Origin: Shigella phage phiSD1
Length of the DNA: 42,072 nt
Direction: 5' to 3' (one strand)
Sequence record: PQ571306
Within the stretch, counting starts at the first letter, position 1, and every line of letters begins with the position of its first letter. The notes under the pieces were generated by a model. It did no database searches, had not been told where the DNA came from, and saw only the letters and a list, made by a program, of their open reading frames with translations. This document shows positions 12,118-12,795 of the stretch, in pieces. Made by a program: the position numbers and the translations under genes.

Positions 12118-12432
12118 TTATAATTCCTTATATTGTTGGGGTATGTGCTTACTATAATAGTCTGCTATTAGGGTGTCAATCTGTTTGAACGAACCGACGA
12201 CAAAAACATTCGCGCCACGTTTACGCATCCTATCGTGCTCCCGTAACTGGTGCGGGTCTGGCCTCGTGCTTTCGTCTTTCTTAACCTCGACAAACCAGAC
12301 GATGCCGCCGGGGAGGATTACCAGCAGGTCAGGAGCGCCCGCTCTATTTTCGTACGACAATTTGCGTACGAGGCCCCCGATGGCCTCGAATCGCTCTTTT
12401 GCGTATTTCTGAATCTTGCCCTCCGGGGTCAT
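12118..12432 (-). CDS. VRR-NUC domain nuclease (PD-(D/E)xK)
   Basis: PDLLVILPGG...VWFVEVKK motif; start set to ATG overlapping upstream small ORF stop. Confidence 0.65.
   Translation of the reverse strand: MTPEGKIQKYAKERFEAIGGLVRKLSYENRAGAPDLLVILPGGIVWFVEVKKDESTRPDPHQLREHDRMRKRGANVFVVGSFKQIDTLIADYYSKHIPQQYKEL
12151..12179 (-). promoter_or_regulatory. Sigma70-type promoter TTGACA-N17-TATAGT (leftward), inside the 3' end of the VRR-NUC gene
   Basis: Consensus -35 and near-consensus -10 read on minus strand. Confidence 0.5.
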
Positions 12433-12581
12433 GAGCGCAGAACCCAAGTTATAAACGCTCCGCCTAGAATGGCAACACCGGCAAACTTAAAGAACAGGCC
12501 GTAACAGAACATAGCAGCTATTCCCGCACCGAGTAACAGTGCGAGCATGGTTACTATCGACCAGAATACAAACATTGTCAT
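12429..12581 (-). CDS. Small membrane protein (50 aa)
   Basis: Hydrophobic 50-aa ORF, ATGA-coupled to neighbours; hand-derived. Confidence 0.3.
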   Translation of the reverse strand: MTMFVFWSIVTMLALLLGAGIAAMFCYGLFFKFAGVAILGGAFITWVLRS

Positions 12582-12667
12582 AACACGCATCCCTCACGTT
12601 TCGTGTGCTCAATCCCGCAGCGCGGGCAGATTCGGCAGTCTTCTTCGTAGAACCAGTAAATTTTCAT
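12578..12667 (-). CDS. Small Cys-rich (zinc-ribbon-like) peptide (29 aa)
   Basis: DCRICPRCG...C pattern; coupled overlaps both sides; hand-derived. Confidence 0.25.
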   Translation of the reverse strand: MKIYWFYEEDCRICPRCGIEHTKREGCVL

Positions 12668-12795
12668 TCCAGCACCCACAGATAAATTGCGATGAACATA
12701 CCCAATACAGCGACCATCATGCCGTATTGGCCCTCGTGACAGTAGACACCGGCGGCGAATCCCGCCAGTACCGCGATAATCAGTTTACTTGGCAT
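12664..12795 (-). CDS. Small membrane protein (43 aa)
   Basis: Hydrophobic ORF starting 11 nt inside DNA polymerase 3' end; hand-derived. Confidence 0.25.
   Translation of the reverse strand: MPSKLIIAVLAGFAAGVYCHEGQYGMMVAVLGMFIAIYLWVLE

Follow-up and report, generated by a model that had tools for sequence, protein, structure and literature searches.

Three very short open reading frames (ORFs) of 43, 29, and 50 amino acids (aa), here termed A43, B29, and C50, lie on the minus strand between the genes for DNA polymerase and a VRR-NUC nuclease of Shigella phage phiSD1 (PQ571306; the whole 42,072-nucleotide stretch that was analyzed is referred to as the window). All three are genuine protein-coding genes under purifying selection, and the phage that carries them is of the Kagunavirus type (Guernseyvirinae). 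Within the Kagunavirus/Jerseyvirus clade, B29 is part of the core gene set, and the cassettes A43 and C50 are dispensable. The initial annotation had grouped the three ORFs together as a single unit, which does not hold, as A43 and C50 are gained or lost independently around a constant B29. The following features define the locus:

12118..12432, minus strand: VRR-NUC nuclease gene, 104 aa from the ATG at 12432-12430 (MTPEGK), downstream neighbor
12429..12432, minus strand: ATGA, C50 stop/VRR-NUC start (direct read)
12429..12581, minus strand: C50, 50 aa, ATG 12581-12579, stop TGA 12431-12429; hydrophobic, accessory cassette
12578..12581, minus strand: ATGA, B29 stop/C50 start (direct read)
12578..12667, minus strand: B29, 29 aa, ATG 12667-12665, stop TGA 12580-12578; hydrophilic, Cys-rich, clade core gene
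12591..12595, minus strand: GAGGG, Shine-Dalgarno-like, within B29 and ~10 nt upstream of the C50 start (direct read)
12664..12667, minus strand: ATGA, A43 stop/B29 start (direct read)
12664..12795, minus strand: A43, 43 aa, ATG at 12795, stop TGA 12666-12664; predicted two-helix membrane hairpin, accessory cassette
12785..14965, minus strand: DNA polymerase I gene, 726 aa, from the ORF list and annotated as 'DNA polymerase I' in relatives; upstream neighbor
12806..12810, minus strand: AGGAG Shine-Dalgarno sequence, 10 nt upstream of the A43 start (direct read)
15723..15751, minus strand: sigma-70-like promoter match, TTGACA-17-TATATT, a consensus match only; nearest strong one upstream of the pol-A43-B29-C50-VRR-NUC block

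The encoded peptides are MPSKLIIAVLAGFAAGVYCHEGQYGMMVAVLGMFIAIYLWVLE (A43), MKIYWFYEEDCRICPRCGIEHTKREGCVL (B29), and MTMFVFWSIVTMLALLLGAGIAAMFCYGLFFKFAGVAILGGAFITWVLRS (C50). Their coordinates had been given correctly to the base beforehand, and the claim that ATGA/TGATG overlaps link them with each other and with the flanking genes applies to three of the four junctions, i.e., A43/B29, B29/C50, and C50/VRR-NUC, each of which is an ATGA. The fourth is different: the polymerase stop codon TAA occupies 12787-12785 on the minus strand, and the A43 start codon lies inside the last 11 nt of the polymerase gene, resulting in an 11-nt overlap (12795..12785). Two alternative ORFs, one of 33 aa starting with GTG and one of 53 aa starting with the ATG at 12590, were rejected, as they do not use the conserved starts. 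The downstream gene matched phrog_93 (4e-32) and phrog_5702 (6e-19) and, below the gathering score, the Pfam family VRR_NUC (E = 0.0014); relatives label it either as VRR-NUC or as Holliday junction resolvase.

Stop/start overlaps are conserved among related phages, with an overlap at the A43/B29 junction in all 47 loci (ATGA in 45, GTGA in 2) and at the C50/VRR-NUC junction in all 26 loci (ATGA in 25, GTGA in 1). The B29 stop likewise forms an ATGA/GTGA with the start that follows it in most loci. These overlaps indicate that A43, B29, and C50 are translationally coupled, both to each other and to VRR-NUC. The AGGAG preceding A43 coincides in position with an annotated ribosome-binding site in phage Sciku. 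A good Shine-Dalgarno sequence is absent at the starts of B29 and VRR-NUC, and translation of these two genes therefore probably depends on coupling. No terminator-like match was found on the coding strand between the promoter match and the three ORFs. From the promoter match to a bidirectional terminator at 9635-9658, the sole terminator-like match on this strand is a weak one inside VRR-NUC (12227-12211), downstream of A43, B29, and C50. The three ORFs would be co-transcribed with DNA polymerase and VRR-NUC. A43 and C50 are the sole strongly hydrophobic small ORFs of this replication operon.

Conservation of the reading frames across related phages had been named as a check on the three ORFs, and in most relatives by far the frames proved to be uninterrupted, with purifying selection acting on them. 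Internal stop codons were absent from all 47 A43, all 54 B29, and all 26 C50 loci. The ratios of nonsynonymous to synonymous change (NG86 dN/dS) were 0.19 for A43, 0.09-0.12 for B29, and 0.17 for C50, and those of the flanking sequences were 0.09 (C-terminus of the polymerase) and 0.24 (VRR-NUC). Most of the variation resides at third codon positions in all three ORFs, with minor-allele counts at positions 1/2/3 of 69/26/198 for A43, 33/32/240 for B29, and 66/22/178 for C50. Alternative frames showed dN/dS values above 0.8 and were interrupted by stop codons in most or all related loci (37-54 of 54), except for one reverse frame of B29 (stops in 12 of 54 loci, dN/dS of ~3). Peptide lengths of 43, 29, and 50 aa are fixed in nearly all clusters, with almost no change across 81 and 100 protein clusters, and the length differences in clusters that keep the frame are in-frame (+3, +2, and -5 aa). 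Frameshifts in A43 or C50 were restricted to a handful of low-abundance clusters. A search for structured RNA gave no Rfam match between positions 11500 and 13500. What the locus chiefly confirms is that replication operons of phages can contain genuine genes of very small size.

The three genes differ in their distribution. Of the 444 records of the Kagunavirus/Jerseyvirus clade, B29 was present in all 444, A43 in 223, and C50 in 120; no record labeled Salmonella (324), Escherichia (103), or 'Kagunavirus' (11) that has the VRR-NUC gene was without B29. All four combinations of presence and absence of A43 and C50 were seen among 54 loci, i.e., the two cassettes assort independently. The slot after B29 holds either nothing, C50, a 64-aa ORF, transmembrane (TM) peptides of 23 or 25 aa, or an HNH endonuclease, and this slot is a hot spot for cassette swapping and for insertions of HNH and endonuclease VII genes. 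C50, the 64-aa ORF, the HNH gene, the 23-aa peptide, and, in some loci, VRR-NUC itself start at the ATGA on the B29 stop, and this ATGA is the exact cassette-swap junction in most relatives (B29 forms ending in VL, IL, or VI). Where B29 ends in DEYA (15/54 loci), VRR-NUC overlaps its end by ~14 nt. The 23- and 25-aa peptides weakly resemble the first segment of C50 (p of ~0.008) and may have arisen from C50 by truncation. In some Jerseyviruses (short forms), A43 was lost via a 116-nt microhomology deletion between TGATTAT repeats, which joins the A43 start plus six codons in frame to codon 3 of B29, so that B29 is kept while A43 is lost.

The genes had also been called unusual; in the sense of new, this does not apply. 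A43 corresponds to phrog_10404 (E = 3.9e-32, residues 1-43 of 43), B29 to phrog_38225 (E = 2.5e-22, residues 1-28 against profile positions 5-32 of 36), and C50 to phrog_14925 (E = 1.2e-32, residues 1-50 of 50), and none of these PHROGs carries a functional label. GenBank lists counterparts as hypothetical proteins, including Bas76_0041, 0040, and 0039, gp46, gp45, and gp43 of phiWAO78-1, and gp39 and gp38 of Sciku. They are the same proteins (76-100% identity over the full length) in the same position between polymerase and VRR-NUC, and the members in the window are ordinary ones. A43, B29, and C50 are thus already known as hypothetical proteins from hundreds of related phages, real but ordinary. 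Many GenBank records leave B29 unannotated, and the gene therefore deserves consistent annotation. Searches with the A43 and C50 proteins returned only relatives with at least 76% identity; the long contigs among these are phage-sized (about 25-45 kb), many others are short fragments, and a few bear names of bacterial assemblies. No significant match for the three ORFs was obtained in Pfam, NCBIfam, PADLOC, PDB, or Rfam. The PADLOC search of seven peptides gave no match at E ≤ 10, in a library restricted to anti-phage defense components. Neither blastn against 5,426 complete E. coli genomes nor tblastn of C50 against 72,556 plasmids gave a match. On the evidence of these searches, homologs are confined to the Kagunavirus/Jerseyvirus clade. 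We found no functional, transcriptomic, or proteomic work on the three genes in the literature on Guernseyvirinae.

A43 and C50 had been described as almost entirely hydrophobic membrane peptides, in agreement with GRAVY values of 1.34 and 1.72, respectively. AlphaFold2 modeled A43 as a helix-turn-helix hairpin with helices at residues 3-19 and 24-42 and the turn HEGQ (pLDDT 76). C50 has two hydrophobic segments (~3-21 and 34-48); the loop contains K32, and R49 lies at the C-terminus. The hydrophobic segments of both peptides have a negative apparent insertion energy, and the predictions taken together support the assignment of A43 and C50 as membrane peptides. The first hydrophobic segment of A43 comprises just 13-15 residues, which makes a true double membrane span uncertain. 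The polar loop YCHEGQYG of A43 is nearly or fully invariant in relatives. Neither peptide has a charged tail: A43 ends in a single E, and C50 ends in R-S. The helix faces of both are glycine-rich with a small-xxx-small pattern. Paralogy of A43 and C50 was rejected (Smith-Waterman score of 35 versus a shuffle mean of 25, p = 0.05; hhalign probability of 0.4%), and their resemblance is, as judged from these alignments, compositional.

B29, by comparison, is hydrophilic (GRAVY -0.43), and its description as a Cys-rich peptide was accurate: the pattern is C11-x2-C14-x2-C17...C27, plus H21, and includes the knuckle C14-P-R-C17-G. Over 54 loci, 15 of 25 aligned positions do not vary, with I3, Y4, E8-D10, R12-C14, R16, and T22-C27 identical in all 54. 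Among the candidate ligands, C14 and C27 are conserved in 54/54 loci, C17 in 53/54, H21 in 52/54 (Y or Q in the other two), and C11 in 48/54; C11 is replaced by R in 5/54 and by F in 1/54 loci, including an isolate genome. C27 precedes V or I in these loci, never P. The alignment thus leaves three candidate ligands firm (C14, C17, and C27) and the fourth ambiguous (H21 or C11). Comparisons with Pfam and PDB revealed nothing significant, the best being zf_C2H2_ZNF598 (E = 0.22) and the COX5B knuckle (E = 0.4), respectively. The non-significant PDB alignments (E ≥ 0.4) all involve zinc-ribbon knuckles (COX5B, Nop10, RpoM, S27ae, and PhnA). Modeled alone and without an alignment, B29 showed no secondary structure (AlphaFold2, pLDDT 60). 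Two further comparisons were discarded. Fusions of a zinc ribbon to VRR-NUC might have linked B29 to the nuclease in the manner of a 'Rosetta stone', and such a CxxC...CxxC extension is rare (~4/150 VRR-NUC representatives), i.e., a lead and not evidence. Small Cys peptides beside VRR-NUC in the outgroup lineages L111, L136, and L056 show no significant homology to B29 beyond the trivial word CPRC.

As to function, we tentatively favor a reading of the coupled micro-genes that we rate as plausible, somewhat short of an even chance: B29 would be a metal-binding cofactor of the DNA module, and A43 and C50 would be host-directed membrane hairpins. B29 would most likely bind one metal ion, probably zinc, via C14, C17, and C27 plus either H21 or C11, and may act as a small cofactor of the replication/recombination module. 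Its link to nuclease or polymerase rests solely on gene position and core status. A43 and C50 would each form a helical hairpin in the inner membrane, probably with cytoplasmic termini and a very short periplasmic loop, and would owe their early expression to their place in the replication operon. They would most likely act on a target in the host inner membrane, not in replication itself; excluding superinfecting DNA or interfering with a membrane-bound host factor are possible examples. We also considered a bolder version, which we regard as unlikely. It holds that B29 is a 29-residue CCHC-type microprotein that every Kagunavirus/Jerseyvirus phage requires as a cofactor of polymerase or VRR-NUC, and that its flanks are a plug-in site at which membrane microproteins (A43, C50, and the 23-/25-aa peptides) are swapped at exact ATGA junctions, which would fit the phage to the membrane barriers of a particular host, e.g., superinfection exclusion or defenses bound to the membrane. 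If true, B29 would be among the smallest known core replication-module genes.

Several other explanations were weighed. The position of A43 and C50 between polymerase and nuclease, with translational coupling to both, would suit membrane peptides that tether the replication/recombination machinery to the inner membrane, analogous to p1 and p16.7 of phi29. An unrelated phage lineage, L112, likewise has a chain of two hydrophobic micro-ORFs immediately before VRR-NUC. However, homology of the L112 ORFs to A43 or C50 was rejected as non-significant (p = 0.05-0.75), and peptides of 43 and 50 aa that are almost wholly hydrophobic have no soluble domain with which to hold DNA or protein. Furthermore, among phages that are otherwise near-identical, about half lack A43 and about three in four lack C50, and the two cassettes assort independently; they are therefore not required for replication, and we consider a tether very unlikely. 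We assign a similarly low probability to the peptides being functionless, i.e., to ORFs that are termination-reinitiation spacers from polymerase to VRR-NUC or leftovers of homing-endonuclease cassettes. The HNH and endonuclease VII insertions and cassette swaps at this slot, the poor Shine-Dalgarno sequences of B29 and VRR-NUC, and the dispensability of A43 and C50 are all compatible with it. A spacer would need an open frame only. The dN/dS values of 0.1-0.2, however, are comparable to those of the flanking enzymes, little or no variation is seen in the YCHEGQYG loop of A43 and at 15 positions of B29, and the three lengths are constant in nearly all clusters. Phages with an empty slot couple B29 straight to VRR-NUC, which makes a spacer unnecessary.

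Two small hydrophobic segments with glycine-rich, small-xxx-small faces could also permeabilize the membrane, in which case A43 and/or C50 would act like a holin/antiholin or a type I toxin and depolarize or arrest the host or tune the timing of lysis. The single-TM peptides of 23 and 25 aa that occupy the slot alternatively are toxin-like in size. However, the genes reside in the replication operon, while the lysis cassette (two holins, endolysin, and Rz/Rz1) is located elsewhere, as seen in the fully annotated relative Bas76. The charged C-terminal tail typical of holins is absent, no homolog was found in E. coli genomes or plasmids and no family matched, and an early hole-former would be self-defeating unless tightly limited. 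This explanation is accordingly quite unlikely. With respect to B29, the spacing C-x2-C-x2-C...C is classic for [4Fe-4S] clusters, with a distal C-P in the ferredoxin type. An iron-sulfur cluster bound via C11, C14, and C17 plus the distal C27, in place of zinc, would match this spacing; however, C11 is replaced by Arg or Phe in some loci, the distal Cys is followed by V or I in place of Pro, and the weak PDB similarities, none of them significant, are all to zinc-ribbon knuckles. We regard such a cluster as extremely unlikely, and return to a metal-binding B29 flanked by host-directed membrane hairpins as the preferred reading.

The result leaves long-standing questions untouched and is unsurprising to the specialist. 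It does point to B29 as a tractable target, since the peptide has 29 residues, is chemically synthesizable and clade-universal, and is encoded between polymerase and nuclease. The BASEL Kagunavirus isolates further offer natural pairs with and without A43 and C50 for probing membrane hairpins in a lytic siphophage.

B29 resembles CPxCG zinc knuckles, with a hydrophobic, strand-like stretch, C-P-R-C-G, and then a His and a Cys. The canonical retroviral-type CCHC zinc knuckle has the spacing C-x2-C-x4-H-x4-C; C14...C27 of B29 covers the same span of 14 residues, but the spacing differs (C-x2-C-x3-H-x5-C). A true zinc ribbon contains a second CxxC knuckle, which is absent from B29, and no profile match to one was significant. 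Among membrane proteins, p1 and p16.7 of phi29 organize phage DNA replication and have soluble interaction domains. They are encoded with replication genes, like A43 and C50 (for which the membrane location is predicted), but the latter have no such domain and, in contrast to a replication role, are missing from many close relatives. Class II holins have two TM segments plus a charged cytoplasmic C-terminal tail and are encoded in the lysis cassette beside the endolysin; A43 and C50 each have two hydrophobic segments and no charged tail, and are encoded in the replication operon. In T7, genes 5.3-5.9 follow the DNA polymerase gene and are accessory, targeting host H-NS and RecBCD. The layout is the same, i.e., short accessory genes between polymerase and nuclease genes that vary among relatives; the products of these T7 genes are soluble and show no sequence relationship to A43, B29, and C50, and the analogy is positional only. 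T4 encodes Imm and Sp, which are superinfection-exclusion proteins. Small membrane peptides in a replication operon had been considered unusual, but precedents from phage early operons exist in PhiNM1 Gp11, a small early phage membrane protein that acts on MurG/DivIC (PMC11237401), and in the YIP peptides of PB1-like phages, small products that bind the diguanylate cyclase YfiN (PMC8085984). Sequence similarity to Gp11, YIP, Imm, or Sp is absent from A43 and C50, which are smaller and have essentially no extramembrane residues; like these small envelope-targeting proteins, they are predicted to be membrane-embedded, are encoded in an early/middle operon, and are lineage-restricted and accessory.

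A total of 383 phage records align to the 1.3-kb stretch around the three micro-ORFs at nucleotide identities of 80-95 %; the great majority belong to Escherichia Kagunavirus or Salmonella Jerseyvirus phages (subfamily Guernseyvirinae). The ORFs lie on the minus strand within a long leftward replication/recombination operon, where they separate DNA polymerase I (pol) from the VRR-NUC nuclease, which is followed by two further small ORFs and a helicase. The strand was read directly, yielding the following coordinates:

12795 to 12664, minus strand: A43, micro-ORF of 43 aa
12667 to 12578, minus strand: B29, micro-ORF of 29 aa
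12581 to 12429, minus strand: C50, micro-ORF of 50 aa
12432, minus strand: start of VRR-NUC

Strong hydrophobicity characterizes both A43 (GRAVY 1.34) and C50 (GRAVY 1.72). B29 is a hydrophilic peptide in which five basic residues are matched by five acidic ones; its Cys/His pattern is C11-x2-C14-x2-C17-x3-H21-x5-C27. Re-reading of the minus strand, hydrophobicity, and the Cys pattern thus bear out the initial annotation in its ORF description and coordinates, with a sole inaccuracy: pol and A43 were said to be coupled by ATGA or TGATG, but actually share a longer overlap of 11 nt, the A43 ATG lying within the final pol codons and the pol TAA at 12787-12785. The remaining three junctions (A43/B29, B29/C50, and C50/VRR-NUC) are formed by ATGA. 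AGGAG is located 10 nt 5' of A43 and GAGGG ~10 nt 5' of C50. No convincing Shine-Dalgarno sequence was found upstream of B29 and VRR-NUC, which are probably translated via termination-reinitiation.

Further elements were identified elsewhere in the window:

12151-12179, minus strand: near-consensus sigma-70-like promoter match (TTGACA-17-TATAGT, 11/12) inside the 3' part of VRR-NUC
15723-15751: second sigma-70-like match (TTGACA-17-TATATT)
9635-9658: bidirectional intrinsic terminator, perfect 10-bp stem flanked on either side by T-runs

The match at 12151-12179 is directed into the small ORFs downstream of VRR-NUC, and the terminator marks the meeting point of the leftward replication operon and the rightward tail-spike gene. 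On the minus strand at ~20900-22900, upstream of the helicase-primase block, no convincing long ORF was found; the region holds only short low-quality ORFs, which probably makes it an early or regulatory one in which small genes occupy either strand.

Coding status was assessed in 54 loci retrieved from IMG/VR through the VRR-NUC protein and in three GenBank loci, with intact frames counted in 53 close relatives plus the window. Frameshifts or stops in related phages with a retained nucleotide sequence, which the initial annotation had named as evidence against the ORFs, do not characterize the population as a whole: the frame is intact in 54/54 loci for B29, in all 47 loci having A43, and in all 26 having C50. 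Values of dN/dS (Nei-Gojobori) were 0.19 for A43, 0.09-0.12 for B29, and 0.17 for C50, compared to 0.09 for the adjacent pol C-terminus and 0.24 for VRR-NUC. The other five frames either yielded ~0.8-3 or represented the trivially correlated antisense frame, and every alternative frame contained stops in most or all loci except for one B29 reverse frame (stops in 12/54, dN/dS ~3). Minor-allele counts by codon position revealed a third-position excess (69/26/198 for A43, 33/32/240 for B29, and 66/22/178 for C50). In a collection of 5.8 billion proteins, A43 formed 81 and C50 100 clusters, nearly all of exactly 43 or 50 aa; frame-keeping clusters comprise in-frame length variants (+3, +2, and -5 aa), and frameshift, truncation, or fusion affects about ten clusters of low abundance. 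Assembled variants with a single frameshift, in which A43-B29 or B29-C50 are fused or C50 is scrambled (P0076, P0079-P0081, P0156, P0167, P0176, and P0181), are possibly sequencing errors or real defective alleles, as they comprise 1-3 sequences apiece.

The three ORFs differ in their distribution. Searching the phage collection by tblastn (VRR-NUC cut-off E <=1e-30), we found VRR-NUC in 452 records, B29 in 444, A43 in 223, and C50 in 120. No Salmonella (324), Escherichia (103), or 'Kagunavirus' (11) record lacks B29, which therefore ranks as core in the Kagunavirus/Jerseyvirus clade; the eight records with VRR-NUC and without B29 are Serratia and Klebsiella outgroup phages. Among 54 loci, 15 of the 25 aligned B29 positions are invariant. 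Escherichia phages invariably carry A43, compared with only about one third of Salmonella phages; for C50, the shares are ~60 % and ~15 %, respectively. All four combinations of A43 and C50 presence and absence occur among the 54 loci, which excludes an obligate pair.

Direct evolutionary evidence of differing importance comes from seven Jerseyvirus-type loci lacking A43 (L037, L045, L046, L047, L052, L024, and L039), since B29 was kept translatable while A43 was lost. These loci harbor one ORF of 33-36 aa (MLSKLI-IYYFREEDCRICPRCG...), i.e., a fused A43-start/B29 ORF (MLSKLIIYYFREEDCRICPRCG...) at about 1398-1508 or 1254-1355. Nucleotide alignment against L041, L044, and L049 revealed that 116 nt were deleted between direct repeats of TGATTAT, one copy located at A43 codons 5-7 and the other, in Jerseyvirus long forms, at the B29 start. 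With the body of A43 removed, its start plus six codons were fused, in frame, to codon 3 of B29, so that the B29 frame acquired the ribosome-binding site and start codon of A43.

The slot after B29 is a swap site, hypervariable for insertions. It contains nothing (B29 leading directly to VRR-NUC), C50, or one of the following:

L003, L006, L012, L018, L041-L043: conserved 64-aa ORF (MSNKPFSKKLAALVDMPEWEF...CAGCTHKG...), alone or together with C50
L020 (23 aa) and L053/L109 (25 aa): two different single-TM mini-peptides
L048, L049, L059: free-standing HNH homing endonuclease (165 aa); decayed remnant in L051

Inserts are mostly attached at the B29 ATGA. In the common B29 forms (VL, IL, and VI ends), the next gene begins at the ATGA that includes the B29 stop codon, whereas B29 ending in DEYA (15/54 loci) is overlapped by VRR-NUC for ~14 nt instead. 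Insertions of ~700-770 nt also occur between pol and A43 (L058, i.e., Bas74, 1472-2167; L019, about 372-1138). The Bas74 insert is annotated as endonuclease VII, and its end is overlapped by the A43 start by 11 nt, as with pol elsewhere, which suggests duplication of the pol 3' end by the insertion. Sciku (L059, 2574-3087) has a helicase annotated as intein-containing downstream of VRR-NUC, a further sign of selfish elements frequenting the replication module.

In outgroup phages (VRR-NUC 44-67 % identical), the pol-VRR interval holds nothing, a ~120-aa HExxH protein, a methyltransferase, or an HNH gene. Additional observations from outgroup and distant phages are:

L101, L104, L106, L107, L110, L125, L131, L133, L134, about 800-1204: HExxH protein of ~111-132 aa (e.g. 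...AHECAHAAMNICH...), frequent in this interval
L112 (IMGVR_UViG_3300027985_000085), 954-1204: hydrophobic micro-ORFs of 30 and 53 aa, overlap-chained directly 5' of VRR-NUC (54 % identical)
L054, L055, 1495-1908: C-terminal zinc ribbon on VRR-NUC (CPECG...CNDC)
L111, 1074-1211; L136-L139, 771-944; L056, 657-860: free CxxC peptides of 45, 57, and 67 aa (CxxCG in L111 and L136-L139, CPRC in L056)

The window lacks the HExxH protein, possibly a SprT-like metallopeptidase. The L112 pair, unrelated in sequence, may be analogous in arrangement. Small Cys-knuckle modules recur beside or fused to VRR-NUC in distant phages, zinc-ribbon fusions being rare (~4/150 representatives). None of these micro-ORFs and Cys peptides (L112, L111, L136, L056, and L054/L055) is significantly similar to those of the window, and we treat the parallels as leads only.

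The three peptides are already known. Each has a full-length match to a PHROG family (10404 for A43, 38225 for B29, and 14925 for C50) that carries the label 'unknown function'. Bas76, Bas74, phiWAO78-1, Sciku, and others list them as hypothetical proteins, B29 being skipped in many records. Pfam, NCBIfam, PADLOC, PDB, and Rfam gave no significant match, and our literature search retrieved no paper on A43, B29, or C50. The feature is real and accurately described, yet ordinary: catalogued hypothetical micro-genes of a well-sampled phage clade. What is added here is the separation of a core gene from accessory cassettes, together with a description of how the cassettes are joined.

Regarding B29, AlphaFold without an alignment gave an uninformative model, and PDB similarities were limited to CPxCG knuckles of zinc ribbons, none significant. 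An Fe-S peptide would fit the cysteines, but C11 is replaced by Arg or Phe in 6/54 loci, which weakens a ferredoxin-type Cys4 site and favors a putative site for one zinc ion formed by C14/C17/C27 plus H21, or C11 where present. Our preferred reading, based on core status, extreme conservation, and retention through the A43 deletion, is that B29 would bind metal and act as a small cofactor in the DNA-metabolism module. That it is an essential 29-residue zinc microprotein beside a plug-in site for membrane microproteins seems unlikely.

For A43, the AlphaFold model (75-sequence alignment, pLDDT 76) predicts helix 3-19, a turn (HEGQ), and helix 24-42; conservation peaks in the loop Y18-C-H-E-G-Q-Y-G25, with no variation at G12 or Y18. 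In C50, a strong hydrophobic segment (3-21) is followed by a weaker one (34-48), with K/Q32 between them and a conserved R49 at the end. By the positive-inside rule, K4 of A43 and R49 of C50 suggest cytoplasmic termini and a periplasmic loop for both. Such peptides could serve as replication anchors, as in phi29, or as holin- or toxin-like permeabilizers, and the micro-ORFs could be mere coupling spacers; each of these three readings is weakened by a specific result. We prefer A43 and C50 as putative host-directed inner-membrane accessories, which would be expressed early only by riding on the operon, because they are dispensable, clade-restricted, independently assorting, devoid of a soluble domain, and the only small hydrophobic ORFs of the replication operon. 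Precedent for this host-directed reading is provided by experimentally characterized small proteins of other phages whose targets are envelope or membrane proteins of the host (PMC11237401, PMC8085984).
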